Position numbers and translations under genes: made by a program
Virus record (IMG/VR): IMGVR_UViG_3300042878_001709
Coordinates: 62,001-126,000 of that record
Direction: 5' to 3' (one strand)
DNA from: an uncultured virus (IMG/VR IMGVR_UViG_3300042878_001709)
Taxonomy: Duplodnaviria > Heunggongvirae > Uroviricota > Caudoviricetes
Length of the DNA stretch: 64,000 nt
Shown: in pieces, positions 20,603 through 59,433 of the stretch
Layout of the letters: every line of letters begins with the position of its first letter
Numbering within the stretch: position 1 is the stretch's first letter
The notes under the pieces: model-generated
Database searches by the model: none
What the model was told of the DNA's origin: nothing
What the model saw: only the letters and a program-made list of their open reading frames with translations

Positions 20603-21433
20603 ATGAGAATAAAAAAGAAATACGTAATTTTAGAATCTAGGTTAATTGATGTGTCATCTGAATTCAGTCCACAAGAAAAAAGAATTTTAGAGATGTTATA
20701 TAAAAAATACGGAGATAGTATTAACAACTTTAACCAGTGGGAAGTTGCTGCAGAGTTGATAGAAGATTTTAATTTAGATTATGAAAGTGCTTATTCGTTA
20801 ACCAAAACATTTTCATGGTCAGCTAGAGAATTATTTTCACCATATAAATCAATACGTAAAAAAGAACCAATTTATAGGTTATTTATTGACAATATATCTT
20901 CTTTAATATCTGAATTTTCTAAATTAAATGAAGATAATTACGAAGTTAATTTACATTTCGATGGAGATGTGGGGGCAGAACCCATTGAAGATAGGGTGGT
21001 TAGTCTTAGTAGTGGATTTAGAGGGTTTTATATGTATATTTCCCTACCAAATTATCATATAGATTCCCCATATAGAAGACATTATATTAATATGGACGGA
21101 ATTAGTAGTAGAACACTATCAGTATCAATAGATTTATACCCAATTGATTTAGATGGTAATAAGATAGAACGATTACATTGGGAATATAATGAGGATGAAA
21201 ATGTTAATAAAAATGAATTTTCCGTTATTAGTACATATTCTAACGTATTGGGTGAGATTAATGATAGAGATAAAATAGATTTAATGACATTTAATGTCCC
21301 ATATCCTACACCTATGACAAAGGAAAGTATATTTAATACATTTGATTTAATTATAAAAGATGTTTTGGATAAACTGTCCGAAACTAATTTTAAATTACCT
21401 GAAGGGATTGAACCTATCAATATTACTGATTAA
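20603..21433 (+). CDS. hypothetical protein, putative head cargo
   Basis: MRIKKKYVILES N-terminus. Confidence 0.6.
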   Translation: MRIKKKYVILESRLIDVSSEFSPQEKRILEMLYKKYGDSINNFNQWEVAAELIEDFNLDYESAYSLTKTFSWSARELFSPYKSIRKKEPIYRLFIDNISSLISEFSKLNEDNYEVNLHFDGDVGAEPIEDRVVSLSSGFRGFYMYISLPNYHIDSPYRRHYINMDGISSRTLSVSIDLYPIDLDGNKIERLHWEYNEDENVNKNEFSVISTYSNVLGEINDRDKIDLMTFNVPYPTPMTKESIFNTFDLIIKDVLDKLSETNFKLPEGIEPINITD

Positions 21434-22836
21434 TGTGAATAATCTACTTGATTGATAATGTTAAATTTGAGACTATTAGTATAGGTTTTTACCAATTGAT
21501 TAGATTTTAATTTAATATCGATAAAATATTCATTAGGTATCATCCAAGAAGTATCTAAAATAAAATAATTCCTTAAATAGGCTCTATTAACATCTAACCA
21601 ATCTATTACATTAACTTCTGCATTACCTTCTTTAACCCACAATCTATATTGTAAACCATCGATTACACTACTTTCATTAACTGTATATGGTAATCTAGCA
21701 TTGACAAATACTTTTCTTTTATCCCCTCTTTTTATTTTTTCATCCCTCATAATACCACTTAAATTAACCATATATTCTATAGGTAGAGATTCATTATCCC
21801 CAAAGTTATAATATTCAGTATCGTCTTTTACCTCAAATTCTAATGTAACATCTGGACGTATATTACCATCTATTACTATATCCGACCAAACATCAGTAAA
21901 TAACCCACATTGGGTGTTTGATATAGGTACGAATAATTCAATATAATAAACCCCTTTATCTGATTGTACTACATCACTACTAGTATACGCAGATATAATA
22001 TTACCGTTACTATCATTAACGGTTACAGTAGGTTTAGTATCTAAATTTGTAGGTTCACTACCTAAATTAGTGTAAAAATATAATCTATTTAATTTACCCC
22101 TATAGAAATTTTTTCTATCATCTCTAATAGTATTATCACATATAGTTTCTAAAAATGGTTCATAGTAAGTCTGTGTGTGTTTAGTAAAAAACCCAACATA
22201 TTGTGATGGGACGATGATTTTAGTTTCTAACGTTCTATCAAAAGATAACCCATACCCAAAATTAACAATATTACCCAAAATTAAATTATTTACCTCACTA
22301 GTGATATCCATCTCAATATTCTCATTACCGATATCGAAATGTTGTGTAGTTACTGTAATTGCGGAAGGAGAACCCGAATATATACCCTGTTCTGACCAAG
22401 TATTTGTTGTGGTTCTATTAAACCAATTACTAGCGGATTGCACAAAAGTTATATCTCCAACATAATCTAAATATCTTATTTGTTGGTAATCATAACCATA
22501 ACCTGAGTCCCAAAATTCGTCTATTTTAAAAAGGATTAAATCAAAAGAAGATGTTCTTTGTTTTCCGTCTAATAATTTTTGAGCCAACAAATCTTTATCT
22601 AAAAATGATGAATTTGTCATTCTTAGTGTATGTTTTACATCGGATAAATCACCTAATTCACCATTATTATATTTTTCTTGTAACCCTACTATATCAAAAT
22701 AAAGAATATGTCTAGTATAGTCAGGTTGAGTTTCTTTACCACCATAATATAGTTCTGCAATTGGGTTTCTTCCCGTATTGGTTAGTTTGTCAAAAATAAT
22801 CGTATTATTTTTATCTATATAAGTTCTGTATACCAT
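21430..22836 (-). CDS. putative virion/baseplate structural protein
   Basis: 468 aa, beta-rich, late motif upstream, adjacent to the spike gene. Confidence 0.55.
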   Translation of the reverse strand: MVYRTYIDKNNTIIFDKLTNTGRNPIAELYYGGKETQPDYTRHILYFDIVGLQEKYNNGELGDLSDVKHTLRMTNSSFLDKDLLAQKLLDGKQRTSSFDLILFKIDEFWDSGYGYDYQQIRYLDYVGDITFVQSASNWFNRTTTNTWSEQGIYSGSPSAITVTTQHFDIGNENIEMDITSEVNNLILGNIVNFGYGLSFDRTLETKIIVPSQYVGFFTKHTQTYYEPFLETICDNTIRDDRKNFYRGKLNRLYFYTNLGSEPTNLDTKPTVTVNDSNGNIISAYTSSDVVQSDKGVYYIELFVPISNTQCGLFTDVWSDIVIDGNIRPDVTLEFEVKDDTEYYNFGDNESLPIEYMVNLSGIMRDEKIKRGDKRKVFVNARLPYTVNESSVIDGLQYRLWVKEGNAEVNVIDWLDVNRAYLRNYFILDTSWMIPNEYFIDIKLKSNQLVKTYTNSLKFNIINQVDYSH

Positions 22837-29973: not shown

Positions 29974-30017
29974 AAGTTTTTATTATTATTTTATTATAAA
30001 ATTTAGATAAGTAAATG

Positions 30018-30774: not shown

Positions 30775-31154
30775 TATTGTACAGTTTTTACTACTTTTTC
30801 ATATCCCTCACCATAATTAGTAAAAATCTCTTCACCTGATTTAATATTTTTTATGGTAAAAAATGTAAATAAATTATTTTCTTCGTTAGTCATCCAGTTA
30901 GCATTATTATTTTTAGAGTGATTATAGATTGAACCAAAACCCCAAACTACAACAGATTTTGATGCGAAAGAAGTTTTTGGCCAAGCAAACACATATTCTT
31001 GTAATTTTTTATCTATAGAAATGAAAGGTTGTTCTAAAATAGTAAAATGACAATTTTCTATGATTTCACCTTCATTAATATCTTCTTTAGCGAAAACACC
31101 TCTACCGTGTGTTAACGAATCCCTAACTTCAATTTTATTACTTATAAATACCAT
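30774..31154 (-). CDS. SET-domain protein lysine methyltransferase
   Basis: IEVRDS..HGRGVFAKEDI.EGEII, IYNHS..NNA, IKSGEEIFTNYG. Confidence 0.92.
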   Translation of the reverse strand: MVFISNKIEVRDSLTHGRGVFAKEDINEGEIIENCHFTILEQPFISIDKKLQEYVFAWPKTSFASKSVVVWGFGSIYNHSKNNNANWMTNEENNLFTFFTIKNIKSGEEIFTNYGEGYEKVVKTVQ

Positions 31155-31155
31155 A

Positions 31156-31911: not shown

Positions 31912-31947
31912 ATATTAAGTTTAAAAATATTATTATAAAAGTGAATA

Positions 31948-32721
31948 CTAAATTTTATTACCTATAATATTTAACCATTCAAGTTTATCGTCAAGTGATT
32001 CAAAACACATCTCAGCCAATTCTTTATTTACTTTACCAATTCCTAATTTCTCATTTTCAATATGTGATTTAATATCGTCTAATGTTGTCCAAGAAAGTGA
32101 ATTAGGGTAGTCAGGTCTAATATTGTTTATACTTTTTAAACCACATAACCCCATTTCAATAATTGACGTTCCACCTCCAGCAAATTTAGACATCGATAAC
32201 CCGACAAAACATTGTGAATAAAAATCATATTGTACTTTATCTATCCACTCATTCATAGGTACTTTATAGTCGGCTACGAGTAAGTCATCATTAATACCCA
32301 AATTACTTATTAAATCCATACCGTAATATTCTTTTCTGTGGGACGGGACATATGAATAAATTTTTGATCCGAGTTTTAACGGATTTAATTTAAAACCATT
32401 TCTCCATATTGGTATTACCTCACAGTTTATCCCTTTTTGATTTAATTGGTTTTTTACATTTGGTATACATGTGATGTTTCTAATATTAACATTTTCCGAT
32501 ATGTATTTTAATCCATCACCGTTTATGAAATTAGAATCTACACCACCCCAAAATATAACGACATTTGACTTTATACTTTTTATAACGTTTACATCATTAT
32601 TGTTGTACACACCGAAAATAACTGTCGGTTTAGTTAAATCAGTTAATTCATCTAAATTAAATTTTTTTACAAAATTAAAAGATGATAGACTGTTAGAAGA
32701 GTATCCTTGTTTAATTCTCAT
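31948..32721 (-). CDS. glycosyltransferase-like protein (reduced GT-B)
   Basis: FWGGVDS, YSQCFVGL...GGGTSIIEMGLCG resemble GT-B donor-site motifs. Confidence 0.5.
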   Translation of the reverse strand: MRIKQGYSSNSLSSFNFVKKFNLDELTDLTKPTVIFGVYNNNDVNVIKSIKSNVVIFWGGVDSNFINGDGLKYISENVNIRNITCIPNVKNQLNQKGINCEVIPIWRNGFKLNPLKLGSKIYSYVPSHRKEYYGMDLISNLGINDDLLVADYKVPMNEWIDKVQYDFYSQCFVGLSMSKFAGGGTSIIEMGLCGLKSINNIRPDYPNSLSWTTLDDIKSHIENEKLGIGKVNKELAEMCFESLDDKLEWLNIIGNKI

Positions 32722-33535
32722 ATCCCATATTTTTTTTTAGTTTATCTATAAATTTAACTATCCTATCATTATATACGTCATTAAACCAACCCAACATGTG
32801 TTCTCTATTTGGTTTACCCCATAACTCATATATTTTTAATTTATCCATACTATACGATAAATCTCTAAATCTATAGTGATTTATCATCAATTCATCCGAA
32901 ACAAATTGTTTAGTTTCGAAAGGTTGTTTAAAATTATTTTTATCTTTGTTTGAGTCTACTTTAATGTAGTTTGGATTTAAATTTGAGTAATGTACTGATG
33001 GGATATTCTTAATTGCTTTTGGTTTAAAAATTGGTTTTACATGTAAATTAAATACTTCATTGTCTCTACTAGATTTTCTTATTTTATCTATTAATAATTC
33101 GTTTTCTTTTAATTCAACACCGTTATTACCGAATAAAACCCAGTTTACTGATATCTCACCAACATTTTCAGGAAATGTTTTTAAGACATCTTTTATATTA
33201 TCTTCTTTAATAGGGTATATAAATTCATCTGTGGATACATGAATAACCCAATCATCGTTGGATTTTTTAACAATATTATTCATTTCATTTAACCAACTAC
33301 TAACAAGTAATAACTCATTTGTCATTCCATTTGGGTTTTTGGTTATGTCGATAGACATATTTGTTAAAATAACTTTACCACTTTCGATATAAGGTTTTAA
33401 AACTGACAGATAATCATCGGTTGAGTTATTATTAACTAAATAAAACTTATCTACCCCAATAAGTGAATGGAATTCAATCCATTCTTTTAAGTATTTTGAT
33501 TCATTCCAAAATACAGATACTATAGAAACTTCCAT
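32711..33535 (-). CDS. glycosyltransferase family 92 / GT2-like
   Basis: NESKYLKEWIEFH..IGVDKFYL.NN.STD, WVIHVSTDEFI, VKPIF, INHY. Confidence 0.85.
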   Translation of the reverse strand: MEVSIVSVFWNESKYLKEWIEFHSLIGVDKFYLVNNNSTDDYLSVLKPYIESGKVILTNMSIDITKNPNGMTNELLLVSSWLNEMNNIVKKSNDDWVIHVSTDEFIYPIKEDNIKDVLKTFPENVGEISVNWVLFGNNGVELKENELLIDKIRKSSRDNEVFNLHVKPIFKPKAIKNIPSVHYSNLNPNYIKVDSNKDKNNFKQPFETKQFVSDELMINHYRFRDLSYSMDKLKIYELWGKPNREHMLGWFNDVYNDRIVKFIDKLKKNMGYEN

Positions 33536-33540
33536 ATATT

Positions 33541-34134
33541 TTATTTTATTTTATTTGTAGGTATACCTCCATAAACACCAGGTATATTTATTGACTTAAC
33601 TACACCAGAACCAAGACCTATTGTAACATCATCACATATTTCTATTTTTTCTCTAATTGATGAATTAGTGCCAATATATACACAGTCACCTATTTTACAA
33701 TTACCAGAAATTTTAGCACCTGGTGCCGTAGTAAAAAAATCCCCAATAGTGGTATCATGTCCAATAGTTGTTGCCAAATTTAAGTGTGCGTGTTTACCTA
33801 TTTTAACATTAGTTGTTATAATAGTATTTGGACATATTATTGATCCCTCACCAATAAAGATATTATTATCTAATATTTGAACACTCTTATGTTTTACTAT
33901 AAAAAATTTAGTATTTTTTGGTAACTTATCTAAGATTGATTTTCTAACTTTAGGATCCCCTATCGCAATAACAACTTCATATTCTTTAACATTCAAAGTA
34001 GATAGAGGTTGAGATGTCTGATCAACATATTGATCATCAACAAAAAATTCAATTTCTTCGTTTGGGTTATTATCAAGTAATATACATTTTACTTCCTTAG
34101 CGAAACCACCAGATCCTATTATTGCTTTTTTCAT
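33541..34134 (-). CDS. sugar N/O-acetyltransferase (PglD/NeuD-like hexapeptide repeat)
   Basis: IIGSGGFAKE, IAIGDP..R, left-handed beta-helix repeats, TIGHD, GGIP. Confidence 0.9.
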   Translation of the reverse strand: MKKAIIGSGGFAKEVKCILLDNNPNEEIEFFVDDQYVDQTSQPLSTLNVKEYEVVIAIGDPKVRKSILDKLPKNTKFFIVKHKSVQILDNNIFIGEGSIICPNTIITTNVKIGKHAHLNLATTIGHDTTIGDFFTTAPGAKISGNCKIGDCVYIGTNSSIREKIEICDDVTIGLGSGVVKSINIPGVYGGIPTNKIK

Positions 34135-34775
34135 TTTTTATATATTTCAAATTTTGATAAATCTGGATAAGGTAATGTTAAATCATCATTGTGTTTAGGT
34201 GATCCATCAATATTATAAAATTGATTCATTAATAATACTCCTCTAGCAGCTAATTCAGGCATCATGTAAAAATTCCAACCCAACATATCAAAATTATCGT
34301 CATGATATGAACATTCACGTCTACCACTGTATCTTGCTCGCCTAAACCATAAATATGCATCATAATCATCTGTTAAAATTGCACCCCCTTTTGATAATTT
34401 GAAGTGTTTGTATGGTCCAGTAAAGGATATACACATATGAGTACCAGGTTTATACATGTCATATGTAAAACTTAGGGCTGAGTCCCAAACGTTACTACCA
34501 ATTAAATTATACGAACCAGTTAATGATTTTTCTGTAACACCATAAAAATCAACTTTTAATCCCGCATGAATAATTTCACACGGTACAGATGGGTATGTTC
34601 TAGATGGTATAGTTATTGTGTCACCAGTTATCGATTTTTTAACATATTTTTCATAATATAATGATAAAAATAATGCATTGCTTTGATTATCTACCGCAAC
34701 CACATAAGGTGAACACGTATAATCTGATAAACACTTTTCAAAATCGTTTGTTATTTTATAAATTCCATTTGCCAT
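34131..34775 (-). CDS. DegT/DnrJ/EryC1/StrS sugar aminotransferase (short form)
   Basis: FEK.LSDY..SPYVVAV.N.SNALFLSL, IP..TYPSV, WDSA, ISFTGPYKH (PLP Lys), GGAILTDD, GWNFYM. Confidence 0.85.
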   Translation of the reverse strand: MANGIYKITNDFEKCLSDYTCSPYVVAVDNQSNALFLSLYYEKYVKKSITGDTITIPSRTYPSVPCEIIHAGLKVDFYGVTEKSLTGSYNLIGSNVWDSALSFTYDMYKPGTHMCISFTGPYKHFKLSKGGAILTDDYDAYLWFRRARYSGRRECSYHDDNFDMLGWNFYMMPELAARGVLLMNQFYNIDGSPKHNDDLTLPYPDLSKFEIYKK

Positions 34776-34785
34776 ATACTTTTTT

Positions 34786-35439
34786 TTATAAATCTTCTTT
34801 TAATCCAAAACCCTGTGATGGTACAAAAATAAAATTTTCAGGTACCCATACTTTATTTGGTATATTATCATGTAATTTTTTGATTACTCTAAAATCTCCA
34901 CATTTCCAACCATCCCATATTGATAAATTTCGATATTTACTATTAAAAGTAAAACATGATCCACCAATACCACCTATGGTTGGGTATTCACCATTTGACA
35001 TATTCACTGGTAACACTACACCATTCGAATATATCATTCTCCAATATATTAAAAAATCTTCATTACATTCATTAATAATATTAACTATTTTTTCTACTGT
35101 ATCTAATGAAGTAAATCTATCGTCATCATCTAAATAAATTACCCATCCTTCTTTAACTAAATTAATCATTTTATTAAAATATAGATTATGTGGTGAATAA
35201 ACTCCAGTGTGTGGGTTTGGGGATTTATCATTTTTAATAATCTCCTCTCTATCTATAAAAATAAAATTTTCTATACCATTTTCTTTAATATAGTTTATAG
35301 AATCTTTATCATCAGTACAGACAATATGGTTAATATTTTTGTATGTCTGATTTTTTATATTTTCAACATTAATTTTAAACCCTTTAGGTCTATTAGATGT
35401 TCTAGTTAATATATTAATTAAGGGTGTTTCCATTTCCAA
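34786..35439 (-). CDS. glycosyltransferase family 2
   Basis: LINILTRT..RP...NIKNQTYKNINHIVCTDD; WVIYLDDDD; GDF. Confidence 0.85.
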   Translation of the reverse strand: MEMETPLINILTRTSNRPKGFKINVENIKNQTYKNINHIVCTDDKDSINYIKENGIENFIFIDREEIIKNDKSPNPHTGVYSPHNLYFNKMINLVKEGWVIYLDDDDRFTSLDTVEKIVNIINECNEDFLIYWRMIYSNGVVLPVNMSNGEYPTIGGIGGSCFTFNSKYRNLSIWDGWKCGDFRVIKKLHDNIPNKVWVPENFIFVPSQGFGLKEDL

Positions 35440-36988
35440 TTAAAGTTTCAAATTCTTTTCTTTTTATATTAGTGAAGTAGTCAAATGTTTTTCTATTATT
35501 AATAATAAAAGGTATTATTCTATTTGTGTAATCTTCTGACTCTCTTTTTAATTTTTCCTCACTTTTATTTCTAGTTATACTTTCATAGTGATAACATACA
35601 GATTCACCAACAAATATATTTACTTTATTTCTACTAATACATTCAATATTTAATTCCACATCCTCAAAACATTCCGTATAACTTTCATTAAATCCTCCAA
35701 TGTCGTTGAATAGGTTCTTATTAATCATTAAAAAGGCACCTGTATTACCGAATACACCTTTTTTAGTATCTGTATGGTAATTATAGAATGAACGTAATCC
35801 ATAATGTGATAAATGTATATTTACTAGATGTTTTTGGTTATTAACTCTACCATTTTGTGATATATACATTATAATTCCTGAGTGTTGGATGGTGTTGTTG
35901 CCGTAATGTAATCTGGCACCAATAGTACCCACAGTATTTTTATTTTTATTATAGGTATCAATCATTTTAGTGATTGCATTATTTACTAACTTAATATCAT
36001 TATTACAAAATAATAAAACTTCAGTATCTTTTTCTATATGATTATTAACTACATCATTATTTATCGATGCGAAATTATAATAATCGTACTCAATTAATTT
36101 TATCTGATCACCCATTTTAGAAATAAATTCTTTAATAATATTAATTTCTTCTTCAGTGGATCCTGTATCTGCAATATAAATTTTATACATAGTATACCCA
36201 TCATTATCATATATAGAGTCAATACATTGTTTTAAAAAATCAACATTACCTTTAGTAGGTATAATTATCGATAATTTTGGGGTTTCTTTTAAATTAATTT
36301 CTTTATGTTCTACTCTTATTTCAGGTTCAATATTATGGGGTAAATTATCTTTATATTTCTCAACAAACTGTAAACGATTACTTTCCCATTGAGAGTTAGT
36401 CGCACCTATAGACATATGTGTAACTTTAACATCAAAGACTACCCCCACTTTTGCACCTAATAGATGATTATTATATGTAAAATCTATGTCGTAGAAGTGA
36501 AAACCTTTTAAATTCTCATCAAAATCTGTTTTTATTCTTTGTTTATGACATGCGAAAAATAAACCATCAGTAGTTACCACTTCTAAAATATCGTCACCGA
36601 AATTAGATGAATATTTAGATTCCCAAGTTCTACCATTATTAGAGTGTTTTACAATACCCACCATTTTGGTACTATCTTCCCACCATTTACCTGATAAAGG
36701 CATATCAGTAGTTCCTGCAATACCTAAGATAGAAAAGTCACTACGATTAAAGTGATTAATTATTTTTTTACCCCAACCATCCTTATTAAAGAGAATATCA
36801 TCGTGACAGAAAATTACAATGTCATATTTAGAATCTTTTAAACCTCTATTATATATTTCAGTTAACGAATATTCTCCATTATTAACATATTGTAAAATTT
36901 CTATATTTTTAGATAACCCCGATGAATGTTTTAAATGGTTATTATGTTTTTGGTTATCGGTTCTTGTTGAAAATACTACACTAATCAT
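35414..36988 (-). CDS. two-domain GT2 glycosyltransferase
   Basis: Domain 1: YNRGL..SKYDIVIFCHDD, FHFYDID. Domain 2: LSIIIPTK, DTGS, LFCNND, TGAFLMI, GGFNE...FEDVE. Confidence 0.9.
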   Translation of the reverse strand: MISVVFSTRTDNQKHNNHLKHSSGLSKNIEILQYVNNGEYSLTEIYNRGLKDSKYDIVIFCHDDILFNKDGWGKKIINHFNRSDFSILGIAGTTDMPLSGKWWEDSTKMVGIVKHSNNGRTWESKYSSNFGDDILEVVTTDGLFFACHKQRIKTDFDENLKGFHFYDIDFTYNNHLLGAKVGVVFDVKVTHMSIGATNSQWESNRLQFVEKYKDNLPHNIEPEIRVEHKEINLKETPKLSIIIPTKGNVDFLKQCIDSIYDNDGYTMYKIYIADTGSTEEEINIIKEFISKMGDQIKLIEYDYYNFASINNDVVNNHIEKDTEVLLFCNNDIKLVNNAITKMIDTYNKNKNTVGTIGARLHYGNNTIQHSGIIMYISQNGRVNNQKHLVNIHLSHYGLRSFYNYHTDTKKGVFGNTGAFLMINKNLFNDIGGFNESYTECFEDVELNIECISRNKVNIFVGESVCYHYESITRNKSEEKLKRESEDYTNRIIPFIINNRKTFDYFTNIKRKEFETLIGNGNTLN

Positions 36989-36994
36989 ATACTA

Positions 36995-37573
36995 TTAATA
37001 TTTACCACTTGATCCAAATCCACCTTCACCTCTTTCAGTTTCAGATAAATTATTTACTTTGGAAAGATCACTAATTCCTTGCCCTATTACATTGACGATA
37101 ACTCCTTGTGCAATTCTTTCCCCTGGTTGTATTGTATACACTTCATTACTCAAATTAACTGCGATAATACCTACATCACCTCTGTAACCCTCGTCCACTG
37201 TACCAGGAGTGTTTAAAACAGAAATACCATATTTAAGTGCCATACCACTTCTAGGTCTAACTTGTAATTCAGTGTTTTGAGATAATTCAAAACGTAATCC
37301 AGTAGGTATTAACTTTCTTTCCAAAGGTTTCAAAGTAATCGGTTCTGAAATAAATGCCCTTAAATCAAATCCACTATCACCAATCTTTGCATATTCAGGA
37401 TCAGGATTATTAGAATTATTTGTAAATTTTGTTCTTATTTTAAAATCATTGATATCTAAATCAAATAAATTTTTGTTATCTAATGTCTCTATTTGGGACA
37501 TCAACGCATTTAATTCGTCTAACTCTCTAAGGTCTTTCGCAAAAGAAGAGTCAAAATCATCATTATCTATCAT
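36995..37573 (-). CDS. dut: dUTPase (trimeric)
   Basis: SGFDL, RPRSG, NTPGTVDEGYRG, GERIAQ, RGEGGFGSSG. Confidence 0.97.
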   Translation of the reverse strand: MIDNDDFDSSFAKDLRELDELNALMSQIETLDNKNLFDLDINDFKIRTKFTNNSNNPDPEYAKIGDSGFDLRAFISEPITLKPLERKLIPTGLRFELSQNTELQVRPRSGMALKYGISVLNTPGTVDEGYRGDVGIIAVNLSNEVYTIQPGERIAQGVIVNVIGQGISDLSKVNNLSETERGEGGFGSSGKY

Positions 37574-38136
37574 TTATTTATTTTTTTACATTCTATTATT
37601 GATAATTCATTTGCCTGTCTTAGTAGAGTAGATAATGTTGATCCATACCATTTAGATTGTTTATCTTCTTCTGATTTATCGTAATTAATAATCGATTGGT
37701 ATTCCTCCTCCGATAACTCAACTCCATTGGATAAGGCGTAGTATGCAGATCTTTCACCTATTTTCATAGAGATTAAATCCTCATTAAAATCATACATTTT
37801 ACCTAAATTATTTCTATGCCATTCAGATTCACAAAATTTATATAGAAATGTCTTACCTATTTGGTGTAAGAAACATACCTTAATGATAGATTTTTTATCT
37901 ACCCTTATATTTTCAGGTAAACTATCATTTAAATAAATCGCATATTTGGTAACTTTTAAAATGTGATCGATTAAACCTCCTGGAAATGCATTGTACATAC
38001 TTTCCATATTAGATGCAGGTGCGGTGAATAAATCTTCACCTAAAAAATTCACTAAAGATTCACTAAATATATCATTAGTTTTTGAAGTCTTATCAAACTT
38101 CTCTCTGTTTTTAATAATTTTTTCTTTTAATTCCAT
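37570..38136 (-). CDS. HD-domain-like protein (YhaM-like, degenerate)
   Basis: TAPAS....NAFPGGLIDH and LHQIGK where the family has HDIGK. Confidence 0.65.
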   Translation of the reverse strand: MELKEKIIKNREKFDKTSKTNDIFSESLVNFLGEDLFTAPASNMESMYNAFPGGLIDHILKVTKYAIYLNDSLPENIRVDKKSIIKVCFLHQIGKTFLYKFCESEWHRNNLGKMYDFNEDLISMKIGERSAYYALSNGVELSEEEYQSIINYDKSEEDKQSKWYGSTLSTLLRQANELSIIECKKINK

Positions 38137-38164
38137 ATTAATGTTTTATATAAGGATAAAGATT

Positions 38165-39421
38165 TTAATTGACTAAATCAACATCGACATATTTTTTTTC
38201 TGAAACTAATTTTTTATAAAGTTCACTTCTTTGTCCACAAACTGTTTTCATATCGTATCTACCATTAACAGTATTATATAGATTTTCACCCATACTAGTA
38301 ATTAATTCAGGATTTTCTATTAATCTTTTTAAATGTGAATACCATAATTTATGGTTTTTTGATGTAGGGACTAAAAACCCGTTACCGTTTTGGTTTATAG
38401 TACCACCTTTTTCATATGAATCAATGACATCTATTTGATAAGGTCCAAAATCTTGTGCGATTACCGCTTTTTTATGGAATCCAGACTCAATTATTTTTAA
38501 TTGTGATTTAACTTTATTGAAGTTACTCTCTTTTAATGGTGCCAATGATATATCAAATAGGTTATAATTTGAGGCATAAGAAGTAATAGGTTTTGTCCAT
38601 ACTCTCCTATATGGTTCATTCATAACATTTTCGTATTCTTTATTTTCAAAAGAAAGTAAAAAATCTCTATACTCTTCACTAACAATTTTATAATCATCAG
38701 TAAATATTTTTTCATATAAGTACCAAACAGATTCCTTTGGTTTTATCGGTCTTTGTGTTTGTTGTCCAGTCTTTTGATCAATTAAAGTCATAGTACCTCT
38801 TAAATCGAACCCACATAAGACAAATTGTACTTTATCGATTAAACCATCATGTCTCAATTTAGTCATTAAACCTTTTAATATTTCCAAATCCTTTAAATGA
38901 GATGAACCACCTAACCAACCTATTCTTATCCTTTCACTTTTTTCAGAGTTATTTTGATATTGTTTTTCTAAAGGATCGATAGCATTTGGTATTACATATA
39001 CATTTTTATTATGTTTACTTATCTCATCTGCAAATATTTTTGTTGTGGTAGTGACATTTTTAGATACCTTTATATTGTTAAGGATTTTCTTATCTAACTC
39101 ATTAGACTTAATAATTTCCCAAGCTGGATGATCGGATCCTGGTGACCAATGATCGTCTATATCCATAATTGTTGCAATACCTAATCTATCACATCTATCT
39201 AATAATCCTTTTAAATCATTATAGTCACCTAAAGTTCTATGGTAATGTATTAAGTCATACTGTTTTAAAAAATTATCATTTAATAATTCAGGTTCATAGT
39301 CGATATCAACATGAAAGTCATTCGGAAAATATTCTTCTAATTTAATGTGGGGTATTGTGGATCTATAATAACTCACGCCAGTACGATCGCTTGGGACTAC
39401 TAATACTTTAATTTTACTCAT
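38165..39421 (-). CDS. glycosyltransferase, GT-B (GT4-like)
   Basis: GVSYYR, DIDDHW, VIPNAID, IGWLGGSSH..DL, FDISLAPL...FN..KSQLKIIE. Confidence 0.88.
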   Translation of the reverse strand: MSKIKVLVVPSDRTGVSYYRSTIPHIKLEEYFPNDFHVDIDYEPELLNDNFLKQYDLIHYHRTLGDYNDLKGLLDRCDRLGIATIMDIDDHWSPGSDHPAWEIIKSNELDKKILNNIKVSKNVTTTTKIFADEISKHNKNVYVIPNAIDPLEKQYQNNSEKSERIRIGWLGGSSHLKDLEILKGLMTKLRHDGLIDKVQFVLCGFDLRGTMTLIDQKTGQQTQRPIKPKESVWYLYEKIFTDDYKIVSEEYRDFLLSFENKEYENVMNEPYRRVWTKPITSYASNYNLFDISLAPLKESNFNKVKSQLKIIESGFHKKAVIAQDFGPYQIDVIDSYEKGGTINQNGNGFLVPTSKNHKLWYSHLKRLIENPELITSMGENLYNTVNGRYDMKTVCGQRSELYKKLVSEKKYVDVDLVN

Positions 39422-53100: not shown

Positions 53101-53271
53101 AGTCAAGATTTTAATCCTAATATGACATATATTCCTAGATCTGAAAGACCTGAATGGAATGTTGTTGGGTTAGTCGGTCAAGTAAGGGTACTGAAAAATC
53201 AACAGATACCAAGTAGGTGGATAAAAATGAAAGATATAAATAATGATATCGCCCTATATTTAATTAGATGA
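47179..53271 (+). CDS. long tail fibre/adhesin with YadA-head-like SHAEG repeats and C-terminal peptidase G2-type autocleaving chaperone
   Basis: GIGT..P fibre motifs, 14 aa SHAEG repeats, C-terminal GADYAEYFE...GVIS...W.GKY.KDEWG...YIPRSERPEW.VVGLVGQ. Confidence 0.88.
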   Translation: MPINKFTTLLDLSRQAKIITGETATFDGKILSGIPFSGYPTGVNTATTVSLGVVSTENAVFSGNTGTTVFDVSNPLSPYYNPLFSGYTATTWTNPLFSATTSGLTLPITILSADTQVVGPFWTLTQTGYTGDYIIGTEYTGYSVTYSFINVSQFNPNVFSGVTSASQENFSAGTLDYKGPLDYLSSKENISVDGRLITNKITISNGASSATTNYVLTQIDDTGKGGWSSVSSLLSGSCLPIVNLETINDCSSGITFNSDVTINGDVIVNGSATTINTEIIRSKDNNIILNYSGTHLTAIGGGFTLEDGVSNGVDSRIYSDSNGVWLFDPSLSANSGTIINFSADTIGSSGDCVNDLYVSNIHSCSPLNINPLNEGDVYFGSTSGVTIDVTHSRIGIGTDSPNYPLQILGGNSTFYYDPTSLGGDSRISGNTNLPRYTVSIAPYLTKPSAGSQFGMRCWDDATSPNYGKVGDTFMYAGNASNGLNLINSPGTGTEDYIRLYAGQTVNGTTPDIHIQGSGVTRGYVGISTSNPQYLLDIVNTNSRLFYDPTSVGGRFSISGKTNVPRFGVEVPPYLTKPLASASLGIRAWDDLLYPDYGNPGDVHLYAGVNAYGLNIISEYGATSADYIRFYAGQDASSGNTPDIHIQGSGVTRGYVGIGTKTPTERLTVSGTSFFKTSSLTTGTSPSFYYLDGVSTPTDTSTIKSIYKEFRPTTTSSSNVVGDGTLLYPNITSPTNGEFYSKANLILYTGDLSLLNSNEALTSEINVVQIQTNTGTYNDIVKSSSSVLRNLTAGGTINEYVGFWMNGFDITLTHNGSTNNIYGFYMDDQSTRSGNIPPPTNRWGIYIKDAGYNYIAGYLGIGTTTPSEKLDVSGKTKTTTLQVTSGATNGYVLVSDSIGNATWQSASGATSGVTFWTASTGVDAIVVKNSGSVASGLLSLAQGYQTTASGDTSHAEGYQTIAGGNFGSHAEGFQTTASGDFSHAEGADTFAIGIMSHSEGYFTSAIGDYSHAEGNLSTASGATSHAEGFQTIASGVTSHAEGDNTIAGGIASHAEGILTIALGNYSHAEGSSTTSSGSYSHSEGASTLASGQGSHAEGAITTASGTASHAEGDGTLASGTASHAEGYYNIASGDFSHAEGGAYFGKLGLQSFPTSATTYSSHAEGVGTLASGQGSHAEGWFGISSGAWSHSEGQGTTSLGQYSHSEGGGSLAGGVSSHAEGINTNSNGTGSHAEGVGTLSLGQYSHAEGDGSISSGNSSHAEGALTLSLGDYSHSEGSGTTASGLYSHAEGVENVASGTASHAEGGAYFGKFGLQALPTSATTYSSHAEGIETLASGQGSHAEGYQTSATTFYSHSEGVSTLASGQNSHAEGIGTLASGQGSHAEGGGTLASGPLSHAEGDNTLASGQSSHSEGSGTTASGPRSHSEGGTTIASGIYSHAEGKYTIASGDSSHSEGYQTTASGVYSHAEGYTNIASGTASHAEGGAYFGKLGLQSFPTSATTYSSHAEGTGTLASGIGSHAEGFLSIASGNSSHAEGYNTQSLAENSHAEGINTLSSGNGSHAEGQNTLASGIGSHAEGLSTSATTTYAHAEGGNTLASGLYSHAEGESTIANGVTSHAEGLSTTASGDYSHSEGYFNIASGIASHAEGGAYFGKSGLVAKPTSATTYSSHAEGTGTLASGIASHSEGINNISSGEGSHAEGNYTLASGIASHAEGLSTSATTSYAHAEGDNTLASGNGSHAEGGNTTASGNGSHAEGSGSSSLGIYSHAEGGGTIAYDNGSHSEGLSTRAIGLYSHAEGNATSATTSGSHSEGWGTIAYESYQHVSGRWNTTGNTNQYFIIGRGTNNASRSNAFRVDSSGNVYGAGATYNSGADYAEYFESLSGDSIPYGTVVELVDDKIKVCVDANNAMGVISSNPTLIGNNEGGTADEWVGKYEKDEWGRYIMEDYSYDAIDYMTESETTIYKTITEQTPKLSQDFNPNMTYIPRSERPEWNVVGLVGQVRVLKNQQIPSRWIKMKDINNDIALYLIR
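48355..49170 (+). repeat. internal duplication of a module of about 125 aa in the fibre
   Basis: YDPTS.GG...PYLTKP...WDD..P.YG..GD...YAG...GLN...DYIR.YAGQ...TPDIHIQGSGVTRGYVGI occurs twice. Confidence 0.85.
50032..52617 (+). repeat. coding tandem array, 42 bp unit, about 59 copies of [SA]H[AS]EG
   Basis: tcacacgctgaagg recurs every 42 nt; four 25 aa variant units at 50593, 51088, 51625 and 52120. Confidence 0.95.
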
Positions 53272-55028
53272 GTAATATATACCAACATAATTTTGACAAT
53301 TGTTTAAAAATGAGATTAAGTAACAGTGACTACTGGGACTTATTTTTATGTTATGATTGTACAGACGAACAAGATAATGATCAAATATTAGAGGATTGTA
53401 TTTTAGTAGACATTGATATTGATAATGATGCGTGTTACTCAGGAAATACTCTTTATAGTTTAACTACTTGGACAGGTGCAACAATCAATGGTAGTGGAAT
53501 CACATTAAATGATATTGGTTTGACGGGTATTGATAATGGTTTTATAATATACGATTGTAATACACCAACCAGTGGGGCAACTTTTTTATCATCGTTTACA
53601 GGATCATCTTTAACATTAACATCAGCAGATACAAGGTTCTCTATGACTAGAGTTACTGGTTGTACATACGATTACCCAATAGATGTTCTTACGGACTTAG
53701 AGGTAGGTAGATATTCTCAATTATGTGGTGGGTTTTATCAAGGATTCTTTAAATTATCTGATATCACCTATTTCAATGAAATAAGTGATAATAAATTTAT
53801 TTGGCCGTTAGATTGGTTTAGATGTCCTACTATTTGTAGTGGAGACACCGTAACTGATTGTTGTGGTACGGGTGATACAACAGGACAAACTTGTACTGTC
53901 GATCCGAATAAGGCGTATCAATGTTATTTAGATACAAAACCAATTCCATACAATTATCAAATATTACCTGAAAGATTAGGTGGTTTAGATGTCGAATGTT
54001 TAGATGGGTGGACGGCAACGTTCTTATTAAATAAAAGTTCCGAATCTTGTGTAGGTAATACACTTAATAATACATACCCTAATAATAAAGGATTTTTCTT
54101 TTATATGGGTACTAGGGCAGAAAATAAGTTTTGGGATTTATTTAGTGGTGAAACTGGGTATACTACCTCATCAGGATATCCTTTACCCCCACCTGTGATT
54201 TCAGAAGAAGTGTTAAATAATAATCCTTTTTTAGTATATCAACCATCAAGTTGTTGTTGTTTTAGTGGTATAACTACAGAAATAACACAAGAAAAAGATA
54301 AAAATGCGGACATTATAGATAACGCATTAGGGTTTAGAATTAAGGATGATGGAAGTATAGGGTTTAGAACTATAATATTGACAGGAGTTTGTTCGGCAGT
54401 TACGGCAACGACAATAGTAGATTGTCATGAACAATGTGGATGTGGGTGTACAGGAACTACTACGGCAACTTCGGTAACCACAAAATATGTTACAGGAACT
54501 AGTATTTATGAATGTTATAGTTCTCCTGGTATTATATCAGAAGATGTGTGGACAAATGTTGCAATAAGGTTTAAACCTTATGAACAATATACCCAATGTG
54601 AATTAGTGAATAAACCTAGAAGAAAAGGTGTATTAACAGTTTATGTTAATGGATATTTAAAATGGACTTTAGAGGATTTTGATGAGTTTATTTTTAGGGA
54701 ATTAGATGAATATAGAGAAAAACAACAAGGTGTCCCATTTAATTACAGTTTAGGTGGGGGTACTCAAGGATTAATAGAATCTAATACAGTTAATGGTCCT
54801 GATATTAAGGACGAAAACTTAGTACTACAAGAAAATTTTGCTGGTACTTTTGAAGGTGGGATTAGTAAATTTAAATTGTATGGTTGTAGTTTAGATATTA
54901 CAACTATAAGAGAAGGATTTAGTAGTTATACACCACCGATACCACCAGATCAAATTCTTATTAATCCGATACTTACTCAGAATGGTGAATATATGAGTGT
55001 TGGTGGGGATTTTTACTTAATTTTTTAA
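53268..55028 (+). CDS. Cys-rich virion protein with LamG/concanavalin A-like C-terminal domain
   Basis: WTNVAIRF...GVLTVYVNGYL...SLGGG...FEGGISKFKLY; ATGA-coupled to the fibre gene. Confidence 0.65.
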   Translation: MSNIYQHNFDNCLKMRLSNSDYWDLFLCYDCTDEQDNDQILEDCILVDIDIDNDACYSGNTLYSLTTWTGATINGSGITLNDIGLTGIDNGFIIYDCNTPTSGATFLSSFTGSSLTLTSADTRFSMTRVTGCTYDYPIDVLTDLEVGRYSQLCGGFYQGFFKLSDITYFNEISDNKFIWPLDWFRCPTICSGDTVTDCCGTGDTTGQTCTVDPNKAYQCYLDTKPIPYNYQILPERLGGLDVECLDGWTATFLLNKSSESCVGNTLNNTYPNNKGFFFYMGTRAENKFWDLFSGETGYTTSSGYPLPPPVISEEVLNNNPFLVYQPSSCCCFSGITTEITQEKDKNADIIDNALGFRIKDDGSIGFRTIILTGVCSAVTATTIVDCHEQCGCGCTGTTTATSVTTKYVTGTSIYECYSSPGIISEDVWTNVAIRFKPYEQYTQCELVNKPRRKGVLTVYVNGYLKWTLEDFDEFIFRELDEYREKQQGVPFNYSLGGGTQGLIESNTVNGPDIKDENLVLQENFAGTFEGGISKFKLYGCSLDITTIREGFSSYTPPIPPDQILINPILTQNGEYMSVGGDFYLIF

Positions 55029-55122
55029 TCCACCACAACTAATTAACCCTATTTTAATAGAAGAGAATGAGTATTTAATCATTGGGGTGAATGAATATTT
55101 ACAATATAATGGAATATTATAA
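55020..55122 (+). other. candidate +1 frameshift site (ATT TTT TAA) and 31 aa extension
   Basis: The +1 frame reads NPPQLINPILIEENEYLIIGVNEYLQYNGIL*, repeating the preceding LINPILTQNGEYMSVGGDFYLIF. Confidence 0.6.
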
Positions 55123-55130
55123 AAATAACG

Positions 55131-55138
55131 ATATTTAT
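55131..55138 (+). promoter_or_regulatory. putative late promoter ATATTTAT
   Basis: Heads genes 55157 and 56588. Confidence 0.65.
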
Positions 55139-55156
55139 AAAATAAAATAGAATTTT

Positions 55157-56560
55157 ATGGCACTTACTGGAAAAACAATCGGTCAATTAACATATCTATC
55201 TGGAGTATCAAATGATACATTATTTCCTGTAGAATTAAATGGCGACACATACCATATTAATTATTCATCCATTACAAAAAATGAAGAGGTAACTTACTCA
55301 GAACTTGTAAATAAGATTACGGGTGAGACATTAACACCAAATAGATTCTATTTGATGACTGATTATCAAACGTGTTATGATCAACCAAACTTTGATGCTA
55401 ATGGTTCGGCAATAACAACGGGTAACTATAAAACAGGAACAACAGAACCAATATTATTGCTAGCAATTTCAACAACAGGATTCTCCCCTACAGTTTATTC
55501 AACACTATATCCACAAGATAAAATCTCTTATGATATTACTTGGAATGCAACTGAAGTTACAGATAATCCTGCTAAAGGTAGAATTACTGAAAGAATTGAC
55601 GAGTTTAATAACAGAACAGATTATGACCATAGACAAGTGGTATTTAAACGATACGAAACATCACTTTCAAGTGGTATTTATACAGTAATTAAAGATAATG
55701 GGAATCCTTACATTGATGATATTCCAACTTTTGGAACAGGTTGTTATTCTAATAAAATAGGGAACTTTTATACCACCTTAGATTTAAACAATACAGGTTT
55801 TATTTTATCAAATAATATATTTGATGATGATTGTTGGGACAATACAACAGGGGCAGATTTTTATAATAATACAATCGGTTCAATAGTTTATGAAAATAAA
55901 TTTGGGGATTCATGTCATGATAATGTGATAGAAGGAGATGCTTATAACAATGTGGTAAATAACAACTTTAGTTTAAACACAATAGGTGGTCAATTTTATA
56001 ATAATACCATATTCAATGGATTTAGATTAAATGTGATAGGGTCACAATTTGAAGGAAATGAAATTTTAAGTGGATTTAGAGAAAATCAAACATCTGCAGG
56101 ATTTGCTAAAAATAGAATTGGTTATGATTTTAGAAATGTAGGTATAACTATTGGAACAAACTTTTTAGATAATCAAATAGGGAACAATTTTACTGATAAT
56201 ATTGCTATTGGAGATGACTTCCAAAATAATGTGATAGGTAACAATTTTCAAGAAAATAACATTGGAAATGGATTTTTTTCAAATCAAATAGGAAACCAAT
56301 TTACTAATAATACTTGTTATGGTTCATTCCAATGGAATATTGTTAATACCGAAGTTAATAATGTTTGTTTAAGTACGGGTATGTTATTTGATATCACAAC
56401 AGTTAATGTATTTAGAAATAAAAATGGTGATGATAGATTATCGTATTACGATGAATTAGATGTTCTAACAATAGAAACATTAACTGAAGCTCCTTGTTTA
56501 GGCGGATTAAACGCATTAGACATACCAGAAAATGATTTGAATTTCGGATTAATATTATAA
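55157..56560 (+). CDS. tail fibre/spike-like protein with beta-helix repeats
   Basis: KTIGQL N-terminus, VTYSEL...Y.MTDYQT motif, repeated N.IG..F..N units. Confidence 0.7.
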   Translation: MALTGKTIGQLTYLSGVSNDTLFPVELNGDTYHINYSSITKNEEVTYSELVNKITGETLTPNRFYLMTDYQTCYDQPNFDANGSAITTGNYKTGTTEPILLLAISTTGFSPTVYSTLYPQDKISYDITWNATEVTDNPAKGRITERIDEFNNRTDYDHRQVVFKRYETSLSSGIYTVIKDNGNPYIDDIPTFGTGCYSNKIGNFYTTLDLNNTGFILSNNIFDDDCWDNTTGADFYNNTIGSIVYENKFGDSCHDNVIEGDAYNNVVNNNFSLNTIGGQFYNNTIFNGFRLNVIGSQFEGNEILSGFRENQTSAGFAKNRIGYDFRNVGITIGTNFLDNQIGNNFTDNIAIGDDFQNNVIGNNFQENNIGNGFFSNQIGNQFTNNTCYGSFQWNIVNTEVNNVCLSTGMLFDITTVNVFRNKNGDDRLSYYDELDVLTIETLTEAPCLGGLNALDIPENDLNFGLIL

Positions 56561-56587
56561 ATAAATAAAAAATAAAAAAACAAAAAA

Positions 56588-57658
56588 ATGATACAAGGAA
56601 TTAGAATAACAAGCACAAATTTATCAGGACTAACGGCAAACATTACTTTTTTACCAACAACTGGTGGAACCTTTAATTTAGGGTCTGAAGTAATACCATT
56701 TAACAATATTTCGGATTATCCTTACGGAACATACGAATTAGACGTTCCATTATATGATAGAACATATGAAATAGTTGTACCAGCACCATTAACAGGTCAG
56801 AGTGCATATACTGAAACAGTAAGAACTGTTACCGTTGACGGAGGAGTACAACCATTCTCAGGAGCGGTATTATCTGAAGTATGGGGAACATATACAACAA
56901 AGTATATCACAAATGAAGGAATACCATCAACTGATATTATTTTAGCTGAAGGTATTTGTTCTGACGATGTTGACGCATCATACTTACCAAACAATATTGG
57001 TCAATGGCCCAATAGTATTAACTCATTTTTAGGTCCATTTATGTCAGGAGGTTTGGCTGGGTTCCCATTTGTTGGGACAGTTGGATACGGTGCATTCTCA
57101 AGTCACGTTACAAACACTGGAACTTTATTTGTCACAAGTATGCCACACATCGGTGTTACTGAAGATGGTCGTTCAGGTAGAATGTTGAGAAGGGGTAAAG
57201 ATGATAGTCTTACAGATAATACCTGTGGTGCGGTTTGGGGGGCAATTAATCAAGTTGTCAATGTATTAACCAATGCCCCAAATATAGAAAATCCACCATT
57301 TGACAATGGTAACTATTCTTTTTGGAAATTAACTGATATTTTATGGCCGCACAAATATGCATTAACAGATTTTACTGGTACTTCTGAAGAAATATATAAT
57401 AATCAAATGATTTTGGCGACACAAATAATTAGAGACGCCGCATACGATTATATCATTACAAATTTACCGTCACAAACAGAATCGTTTACTGAAAATCCAG
57501 TTTACTTTTTAAGTGGTATATTTATTAATTCAGATGTTAATGTGGGTACAACACAATTTGAATCGTATGTTGTAGTCGATAAAGTTATGAAATATGTATT
57601 TGATGATCAGTGGTATGATATAACATCAGATTATAAGTTAGGGTTACCAATTGATTAA
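56588..57658 (+). CDS. LCIB/LCIC-family (theta-type) carbonic anhydrase domain with N-terminal beta module
   Basis: C124-S-D126, GGLAGFPFVG..G..AF..H173, PH187IG....G..G...R.G, C213GA, SGIFIN, in LCIB-family order. Confidence 0.82.
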   Translation: MIQGIRITSTNLSGLTANITFLPTTGGTFNLGSEVIPFNNISDYPYGTYELDVPLYDRTYEIVVPAPLTGQSAYTETVRTVTVDGGVQPFSGAVLSEVWGTYTTKYITNEGIPSTDIILAEGICSDDVDASYLPNNIGQWPNSINSFLGPFMSGGLAGFPFVGTVGYGAFSSHVTNTGTLFVTSMPHIGVTEDGRSGRMLRRGKDDSLTDNTCGAVWGAINQVVNVLTNAPNIENPPFDNGNYSFWKLTDILWPHKYALTDFTGTSEEIYNNQMILATQIIRDAAYDYIITNLPSQTESFTENPVYFLSGIFINSDVNVGTTQFESYVVVDKVMKYVFDDQWYDITSDYKLGLPID

Positions 57659-57670
57659 ATAAATAAAAAA

Positions 57671-57727
57671 ATGGTAACAAAATACATAGTAGATAACTTA
57701 AAAAAACAAATAATAGATATTTATTAA
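57671..57727 (+). pseudogene. 18-codon remnant duplicating the start of the next gene
   Basis: MVTKYIVDNLKKQII versus MAKTKYIVNNLLGQKI at 57740. Confidence 0.55.
57717..57724 (+). promoter_or_regulatory. putative late promoter ATATTTAT
   Basis: 15 nt before ATG 57740. Confidence 0.6.
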
Positions 57728-57739
57728 TAAAATAAAATT

Positions 57740-58297
57740 ATGGCAAAAACAAAATATATTGTAAATAATTTATTAGGTCAGAAAATTGGAGGAGAATCAT
57801 TAATTCCAATGTATAGTCAATCAATAATTTATACAGGAAATCAAATAAATTGTTTAAATGTTAATAGTGGTATGACCCTAACTGAAGTTGTTGAATCAAT
57901 TGGTAACACATTTTGTTCGACACCTCCTATTTATACGTGTGGAGACTTTGTATTAATAACTAATCCAATTGGGGAGTGCCAAAACCCGTTACAATATCTA
58001 TTTAATCAGTCAATTTTATCTTGGTGTGAAGAACATCCACCAGTAGTTCCTTGTACAAGTAATGTAAATTCTTTAGATTACTTATTCGATCAAGTAATTG
58101 AAAATTGGAATAACGAACATCCTCCTGTGGTACCTTGTACAAGTAATGTTAATTCTTTAGATTACTTATTTGATCAAATAATTGAAAATTGGAATAACGA
58201 ACATCCGCCATTAGTTCCTTGCACAAGTAATGTAAATTCTTTAGATTACTTATTCGATCAAGTAATTGAAAGTTGGGAAAACCAACAATTAGTTTAA
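57740..58297 (+). CDS. Cys-containing repeat protein, putative virion
   Basis: Three 28 aa tandem repeats at the C-terminus. Confidence 0.7.
   Translation: MAKTKYIVNNLLGQKIGGESLIPMYSQSIIYTGNQINCLNVNSGMTLTEVVESIGNTFCSTPPIYTCGDFVLITNPIGECQNPLQYLFNQSILSWCEEHPPVVPCTSNVNSLDYLFDQVIENWNNEHPPVVPCTSNVNSLDYLFDQIIENWNNEHPPLVPCTSNVNSLDYLFDQVIESWENQQLV
58031..58282 (+). repeat. 3 x 84 bp coding tandem repeat
   Basis: Units start at 58031, 58115 and 58199: EHPPVVPCTSNVNSLDYLFDQVIENWNN. Confidence 0.95.
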
Positions 58298-58322
58298 AAT
58301 AAAATAAAATAAAAAATGAAAA

Positions 58323-58946
58323 ATGAAAGAACAAATTATGAACACAATAAATGAAATTTTAGACAGAACTCTTGATAAGGGAATATTACAGAGTAATAAT
58401 GAGTTGGACATTTGTTGTCCAGACTGCGTTCAAAATATGAACGATAATAATGTTAGTATATATACAATTTCATCTGTTGAGACATTTTTAAAATTTTCCG
58501 AAGCGATTGGTTTTAACAGAGGGATTACCCCAACTTGTTGTCCACAGATAACTGCATCAGTAGAAACCAGTTTAAAATTTAATGAGGCTTTTGGGGATTC
58601 ACCAACAAATCCTGTACCGTCATGTCCAACAAACTTTAATGAATGTATGAACACTCTTAAAAACTCTTTGACAAGTGAAGGTGTTGACCGAATATTGGAT
58701 AAAGGAGTTGTTGAGTATGGGTCGTTAAGTGGATTTTCACAAATATGTAGAATTGATGAATTTATTGATTTATCGATAAGTTTAGACCCTCAATCAGGAA
58801 CTAAAGAAGAAATAATTGATAGAATTATTGATAAAGGTATTGTTGTTAGTTGTTATGATGACGAAATTGTTATTTCTTCCGTTGAGACTTGGTTAAAATA
58901 TGCAGAGGCAAATGGTTTAACTTATACAATGGCAATACCTGCATAA
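58323..58946 (+). CDS. Cys-containing internally repeated protein
   Basis: DR..DKG x3, SVET.LK..EA x3, CCP x2. Confidence 0.7.
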   Translation: MKEQIMNTINEILDRTLDKGILQSNNELDICCPDCVQNMNDNNVSIYTISSVETFLKFSEAIGFNRGITPTCCPQITASVETSLKFNEAFGDSPTNPVPSCPTNFNECMNTLKNSLTSEGVDRILDKGVVEYGSLSGFSQICRIDEFIDLSISLDPQSGTKEEIIDRIIDKGIVVSCYDDEIVISSVETWLKYAEANGLTYTMAIPA

Positions 58947-59051
58947 AACACACATCCATAATTATAACGAATCTTCCTACCTTAAAATAGATTTACACGA
59001 ATCAGATTAAGTCAAAGAATCGCAAAATATTTTCAAAAAATAAATTAACTA

Positions 59052-59059
59052 ATATTTAT
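59052..59059 (+). promoter_or_regulatory. putative late promoter ATATTTAT
   Basis: 5 nt before ATG 59065. Confidence 0.6.
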
Positions 59060-59064
59060 ATTAT

Positions 59065-59433
59065 ATGGAATTTTTTATCAACAAAAATAGTACATTACCA
59101 AAACTAAAAATGGAATTAGTTAATGATGGTAGAAATGATTTTCGTAAATTTTATGAAAAAATACAAAATGCTACCATAACATTTACTATGTACAATGTAG
59201 AATCAAAAGTTAAAAAGATTTCATGTTCACCATCATACATAGAAATGTCGGTTGCCAATGATTGCGAAAATAGTGAAACTCCAACATATTTTATAACATA
59301 TAAGTTTACAGAACAACAAACAAATAAGTCTGGAAGATATAATGGGTACTTTACAATTAATTTTCTAGATGGTACAGGTACATTAATCGCACCTATTAGA
59401 GACGAATTATTTATAAATGTTTTAGATAATTGA
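59065..59433 (+). CDS. BppU N-terminal-like Ig-fold baseplate protein
   Basis: F.I.KN.TLP.L.MEL...ATITFTM...Y.F....T...G.Y.G.F.I.F..G..L..P....L.I.V pattern. Confidence 0.6.
   Translation: MEFFINKNSTLPKLKMELVNDGRNDFRKFYEKIQNATITFTMYNVESKVKKISCSPSYIEMSVANDCENSETPTYFITYKFTEQQTNKSGRYNGYFTINFLDGTGTLIAPIRDELFINVLDN

Follow-up and report, generated by a model that had tools for sequence, protein, structure and literature searches.

The closest described systems to the gene analyzed here are the LCIB/theta-type carbonic anhydrases (CA), represented by the structures of PtLCIB4 (5b5y, 6kfs, and 9vzj), Chlamydomonas LCIB (5k5w), and Chlamydomonas LCIC (5b5x), together with their stand-alone bacterial homologues. 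Among viruses, a CA fold is carried by protein D8 of vaccinia virus, where it is of the alpha type and non-catalytic. D8 exposes this fold on the virion surface, binds chondroitin sulfate with it, and uses it in attachment, according to the accessible part of PMC8619513. The accessible part of a second source describes viral CAs as all beta-class and treats them as auxiliary genes (10.64898/2026.01.21.700432). These enzymes resemble the present case in that a CA gene lies in a virus genome; they are close to bacterial copies, some are joined to sulphate-transporter domains, and the portions available of the two reports on them mention neither the LCIB type nor virion display (10.64898/2026.01.21.700432; PMC13037468). 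An earlier note on this DNA knew of no described phage virion CA, and our literature search likewise found neither a phage LCIB nor a phage virion CA; supplementary annotation tables may list PF18599 for phages of this kind. The available parts of PMC7215798, PMC6776030, PMC12619734, and 10.64898/2026.05.24.727406 contained no phage LCIB, and the accessible supplements of PMC10914622 gave no match.

We analyzed a stretch of 64,000 nucleotides from an uncultured virus (hereafter the window; positions 62,001 to 126,000 of IMG/VR record IMGVR_UViG_3300042878_001709). The genome fragment is 126.6 kb long, about 39% complete, and derives from a T4-like large phage whose terminase, portal, protease, and major head genes lie in the window. 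Matching DNA was found in 18 DNA runs that contained half or more of its words, all of them lake water metagenomes. The features discussed below are collected in Table 1.

Table 1. Positions of the features discussed, numbered from the first nucleotide of the window
Feature	Position	Strand	Basis or remark
468-aa conserved gene; homologues elsewhere bear an in-frame CA insertion	21430..22836	-	late-type motif upstream
4.1-kb block, absent from the near-identical phage G001 (L179)	54925..59049	+	fibre-like gene, CA gene, two orphan genes
'ILINPIL' peptide, by which the block extends the C-terminus of the 586-aa gene (53268-55028)	54954..55025	+	possible docking site for the fibre N-terminus
ATATTTAT motif, presumed late promoter shared by the fibre-like and CA genes	55131..55138	+	
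Fibre-like gene, 467 aa, N-N-x-I-G repeats, tag carrier	55157..56560	+	
'DIP' tag, 16 residues at the C-terminus of the fibre-like protein; predicted to dock the CA protein	56510..56557	+	
P0001 gene, module plus LCIB/theta CA, 356 aa	56588..57658	+	ORF call, Pfam, PDB matches, dN/dS
Module at the N-terminus (residues 1-68), predicted to form an Ig/FnIII-like beta-sandwich and likely to act as a virion adaptor	56588..56791	+	
PF18599 match, residues 103-330, with C124, D126, H173, H187, R201, and C213	56894..57577	+	

The earlier note had read the gene at 56588-57658 as an LCIB/theta-type CA, and profile searches confirmed this assignment. The Pfam family PF18599 (LCIB_C_CA) matched its product, P0001, with 106.8 bits (E 1.3e-30) against a curated cut-off of 25 bits. 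All PDB chains matched by sequence belong to the LCIB family, the best being 6kfs (E 2e-14) and 5b5y (E 1e-11), and a profile built from the phage and bacterial copies matched 6kfs at E 2.5e-52. The Cys-x-Asp, GGLAG, His, Pro-His, Arg, and Cys-Gly motifs occur in the same order as in the described members. An AlphaFold model of the whole protein, computed with 73 close homologues as input, reached a pLDDT of 53.5, with the ligand loops below 50, and is therefore unusable for zinc-ligand geometry; a Foldseek search with this low-confidence model nevertheless returned LCIB family members as its top 8 matches (E 6e-6). P0001 had no match among 50,697 GenBank phages or in PHROGs. The best 120 of 206 homologues were 75 to 94% identical to it, nearly all full length, and located on contigs of up to 320 kb. 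Judged from these sequence data, the gene encodes a real and intact-looking member of the LCIB family in a new setting.

We next compared the residues of the putative active site across the family. After removal of identical and cut sequences, C124, D126, H173, H187, R201, and C213 were invariant in 49/49 phage and 73/73 bacterial domains; the invariance of H173 is partly by construction, because this residue belongs to the motif used for scanning. C124, H187, and C213, which could be aligned to the PDB chains, correspond to what we take to be the Cys-His-Cys zinc ligands of the family. S125 aligned with S47, the residue changed in the PtLCIB4 S47R structure, and by the same numbering offset H173 is PtLCIB4 H88. 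The second-shell residues (the Asp after the first Cys, the H88-equivalent His, and the conserved Arg) are all present as D126, H173, and R201. The positions given earlier for C124, S125, D126, H173, P186-H187, and C213-G-A were reproduced. The 'R.G' motif reported with them is present as well, but the family-invariant arginine is R201, whereas R202 varies. The ratio dN/dS was about 0.2 in both the module and the core (0.19 in the core; 23 distinct alleles). Some LCIB proteins with the full motif are inactive, according to the part of PMC5876011 that was available. The zinc-hydroxide site predicted for P0001 would be likely to hydrate CO2 in the test tube.

A motif scan detected 64 viral loci with CA homologues and 91 bacterial loci, the latter mostly from Bacteroidota and Balneolota among the 80 listed. 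An alignment-driven scan of GTDB for the same homologues had returned nothing before the motif scan succeeded, and no loci were found for the divergent P0256. Because the bacterial scan is biased toward its own motif, we name no donor. A tree of 48 CA domains, thinned from 122 and computed with the algal sequences left out, placed all 20 phage rows on one side of a long branch with a support of 100/100. Within this sampling, the phage domains form a separate, phage-only branch. Among the matches listed, the phage domain was 25 to 34% identical to the bacterial copies, and it contains phage-specific conserved residues and insertions. The bacterial proteins share the invariant residues but are about 230 aa long and lack several of the phage insertions; they have a Glu at the position of phage D127.

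The two groups also differ in architecture. The 74 whole bacterial copies measured 209 to 303 aa and contained the N-terminal module in no case. Of the 59 viral copies with a whole 5' end (5 cut copies were excluded), 48 carried the module, and the remainder comprised 6 of a 308-aa form, 2 of a 374-aa form, 2 of a 776-aa form, and 1 of a 399-aa form; none was a stand-alone CA. In the 776-aa form (L024), a homologue of the 468-aa gene is interrupted at residue ~107 by an in-frame CA domain. The 468-aa gene had a homologue in 5/5 large records searched, and in the ESM Atlas it matched just unnamed viral clusters, with a CBM96 lead on 14% of the members of one cluster. The 308-aa and 374-aa forms are flanked by a neck gene on one side and by tail sheath and tube genes on the other, and the first 72 residues of the 374-aa form are common to a non-CA gene at the same site in other phages (E 2e-29). 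By sequence comparison, the alternative carriers in related phages are structural-looking. The phage copies differ from described LCIB proteins in being phage-encoded, always carrier-fused, paired with a tag (see below), and, in the tree without algae, on a branch of their own.

These architectures bear on whether P0001 is a cytoplasmic auxiliary enzyme that supplies bicarbonate or CO2 to host carboxylases late in infection, with module and tag acting as an intracellular tether. Viral beta-class CAs are read as auxiliary genes in the accessible parts of the reports cited above (10.64898/2026.01.21.700432; PMC13037468), P0001 has no evident signal peptide or membrane segment, and the CA gene often lies just ahead of a DNA polymerase gene. 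It is also accessory: PF18599 was absent from 22/22 related records, 2 of them complete, in a search whose positive control worked. (A search of five related records with alignment A3, run without a positive control, was also empty.) Yet a cytoplasmic enzyme would hardly account for the lack of stand-alone forms among the viral copies, the five different fusions to structural-looking carriers, or the late-type motif described below, and the long branch separating the phage domains from all sampled bacterial copies is unlike that of a recently captured host enzyme. We consider an intracellular role rather unlikely.

The extra N-terminal beta module of about 65 aa proposed earlier corresponds to residues 1-68, which were modeled as a six-strand beta-sandwich with a pLDDT of 82. 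When its fold was searched, only generic Ig/FnIII matches were obtained (Z up to 6.3). C-terminal domains of type IX secretion ranked 2 and 4, but they tied with unrelated sandwiches and were rejected as relatives. The fold had no hit at E<=0.001 in a viral library, and the ESM Atlas gave no usable match. In a search with the module alone, as suggested earlier, a profile of residues 1-68 detected 383 protein clusters (50% identity) at E<=0.001, with the module N-terminal in all but two of the best 150. A Pro/Thr stalk follows it in 70/149 new proteins. Pfam matched 9/126 scanned module proteins, one of the nine being the CA itself; the cargo was LamG (twice), DUF285 (twice), a DUF5122 propeller, Fib_succ_major, PKD, and one arabinofuranosidase-B-like domain. 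An LLxED-type tag was found on 4/149 module proteins only and was dropped. Six module genes occur in one 91%-complete record, and four of these lie in the interval from terminase to portal. The module is common to stalked adhesin-like proteins, without a PHROG, isolate, or distinctive fold match, and the relatives found include no proven virion protein. As read from these sequences, the layout of module, stalk, and cargo is the anatomy of surface decorations.

The lectin-type domains carried by the same module also raise a different possibility, that P0001 is a non-catalytic adhesin displayed on the virion in the manner of D8, its zinc being structural or an anion anchor. The D8 precedent, as described in the accessible part of PMC8619513, and the phage-specific residues and insertions of the CA domain would fit such a function. 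However, D8 belongs to an unrelated CA class, is membrane-anchored, and binds through a basic crevice, whereas P0001 is acidic (15 K+R versus 38 D+E) and its zinc site is complete. Retention of D126, H173, and R201 along with the ligands in all 49 phage domains likewise argues against a purely binding role. We regard this D8-like explanation as distinctly unlikely.

The late motif reported upstream of the fibre-like gene proved real. ATATTTAT occurs within 60 nt upstream of 48/150 genes of this genome, an 18-fold enrichment, and precedes the terminase, portal, protease, neck, and fibre-like genes among others; it is absent upstream of thymidylate synthase, DNA polymerase, and PhoH. The CA gene has no ATATTTAT of its own here and begins 28 nt after the fibre-like gene. 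From the gene classes behind the motif, we infer late expression of the fibre-CA pair. In related loci, TATTTAT lies directly upstream of the CA gene in 24/38 distinct upstream regions, and fibre-like homologues directly precede it in many loci. The earlier placement of the CA gene behind a fibre-like gene held; that this neighbor encodes a tail fibre is presumed, as it has no Pfam or PHROG match. Metatranscriptome contigs of relatives covered parts of the CA gene in 4/4 examined (6 listed), and two bridged the fibre end and the CA start; lacking a silent-stretch control, these counts are not evidence of expression. Only 5/150 genes of this genome are preceded by a Shine-Dalgarno-like word, a scarcity that presumably fits a Bacteroidota host.

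The gene upstream of the module-CA gene usually ends in a tag with the pattern L-D-I-P-x-(N/D)-D-L-x-(F/Y)-x-L-I. With a profile derived from the same loci that were counted, and with some contigs counted twice, we detected the tag in 63/69 module loci; the six misses were loci that start at the CA gene. It was present in 0/18 CA loci without a detected module (7 of the 18 cut) and in 0/80 neck loci of relatives without a CA gene. A plain-pattern search gave 20/23, 43/64, and 0/80. At least four unrelated carriers bear the tag (the fibre-like gene, homologues of 59065-59433 and of 53268-55028, and a small protein); the copies per carrier range from one to at least five and are often in tandem. 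In L206, a fibre homologue without CA stops exactly where the tag would start. The tag is kept despite an intervening gene before the CA gene in L004, L005, and L015. A 223-aa gene, which looks pirin-like to us, separates the tagged fibre gene from the CA gene in these three loci and in L028, L031, and L051.

The tag sequence tracks the module rather than the carrier (r 0.81, and 0.77 for pairs with different carriers), a correlation that linkage alone could also produce; adjoining the CA gene, the tag could simply hitchhike with it. We had also considered the tag as a general ligand of the module, which was ruled out by five non-CA module genes in G023 that have no tag beside them. Because of this absence, the tag appears specific to the CA protein.

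Comparison with relatives suggested how the locus was acquired. The near-identical phage L179, whose neck protein is 100% identical to that of this phage, lacks the whole block; the flanks are 85% and 96% identical and are joined there by 5 nt. Neither a CA nor a module gene was present in the 80 neck-gene loci; among the 25 closest of these, 11 cover the slot in full. At the same time, the CA gene and the adjoining end of the fibre gene were 81 to 88% identical in DNA to eight loci among the matches listed, which come from a set of phages with neck proteins no more than 57% identical and polymerases no more than 50% identical. We therefore consider lateral gain likelier than loss, since CA DNA of such identity is shared between phages with distant neck and polymerase proteins while the slot is empty in close relatives. 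On this comparison, the cassette was likely gained from a distant phage.

The block also alters its upstream neighbor, since the ILINPIL peptide is absent from the L179 homologue of the 586-aa gene. All 11 loci with an ILINPIL pattern (11/11) also had a fibre starting LTGKTI, and either feature was found in 0/80 neck loci. Directly behind the stop codon that ends the 586-aa gene lies a second ILINPIL copy (55027-55122, +), which a run of six T (55021-55026) precedes and whose frame is shifted by one base. A sequencing error, a degenerate repeat, or a slippage switch that sets how many docking sites are made may account for this copy.

Several other observations were made in and around the block. 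The slot between the 586-aa and 122-aa genes (window 53268-59433; L179-L203) is hypervariable, being empty in some close relatives and holding genes of 369 to 2141 aa in others. Downstream of the CA gene, an 18-codon ORF (57671-57727, +; MVTKYIVDN...) duplicates the N-terminus of the gene after it (57740-58297) and that of ~404-aa genes located behind the CA gene in relatives; this ORF is probably a relic of gene replacement. The two Cys-rich orphan genes (57740-58297 and 58323-58946, +) had no homologue in the loci fetched, and the first contains three near-perfect 27-residue repeats. A cluster of glycosyltransferase-, aminotransferase-, and PhoH-like genes occupies 27681-39421 (-), and comparable sugar-modifying genes border the CA slot of relatives, which suggests that Pro/Thr stalks or the particle may be glycosylated. 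In G000, dozens of genes upstream of the window, as well as 9579-11471 and others, share an acidic-ended leader (MKIIITE.Q, MK.II..ILKE), many of them behind a late-type motif; this leader is possibly a capsid-targeting signal for internal proteins.

Taken with the comparisons above, the CA is likely displayed on the virion. The reading of P0001 as an enzyme fused to a virion anchor gained comparative support from the shared module, the four other carriers, the late-type motif, and the paired tag; display and activity are predictions. A displayed P0001 could be a true CO2 hydratase that alters pH or carbonate around the particle, as the earlier note had envisaged for local pH or bicarbonate, with conceivable uses in sensing respiring cells, in algal boundary layers, or in resisting calcite coating. 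The intact CA site and the lake-water origin would suit this activity. Nevertheless, a catalyst has an effect only away from equilibrium, and order-of-magnitude estimates with assumed textbook parameters suggested a physically weak effect: one respiring cell would add only 0.01 to 1.4 uM CO2 at its surface, and in buffered water 6 to 60 sites would shift the pH next to the particle by no more than about 0.003. As a whole, this explanation seems to us very unlikely. The second idea of the earlier note, that the fold has been repurposed for a contact function, merits no less weight than pH or bicarbonate, and because the estimated local pH effect is negligible, we prefer a contact-range role on the host surface.

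According to our model, to which we give an even chance, P0001 is an LCIB-type zinc enzyme made late, hung outside the particle, and acting at contact range on the host surface. The protein would be produced late in infection, would fold into a zinc dimer like PtLCIB4, and would be captured, via its module or its enzyme domain, by the DIP tag that terminates the fibre-like protein; the fibre would in turn dock on the 586-aa protein through the ILINPIL peptide of the latter. The substrate would be a small carbonyl or anionic group of the host envelope (an ester, a carbamate, or a carbonate-like group) met on contact, and this would group P0001 with the lectin-type cargo of the same module. The host-surface step, which we consider likely, rests on exclusion and on the company that the module keeps. 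In a broader form of the model, which we put forward as a tentative possibility, short peptide tags on structural proteins of giant lake phages would act as plugs and sockets that capture interchangeable cargo, including an active LCIB enzyme on five carriers, spread between distant lineages and used at adsorption.

If this plug-and-socket arrangement is true, P0001 would be the first phage virion CA, and the tag and its partner a new tag-binder pair of natural origin. The 16-residue tag, for which a binding partner is predicted, is testable without culturing the phage. The phage proteins add a new branch to the LCIB family, whose activity is debated, and offer a testable case of a small-molecule-chemistry enzyme on a phage surface. 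Annotation pipelines would class such a gene as a carbon-cycle auxiliary gene, while its anatomy points to a part of the particle as more likely, a reading that alters how such genes are to be interpreted in lake viromes.
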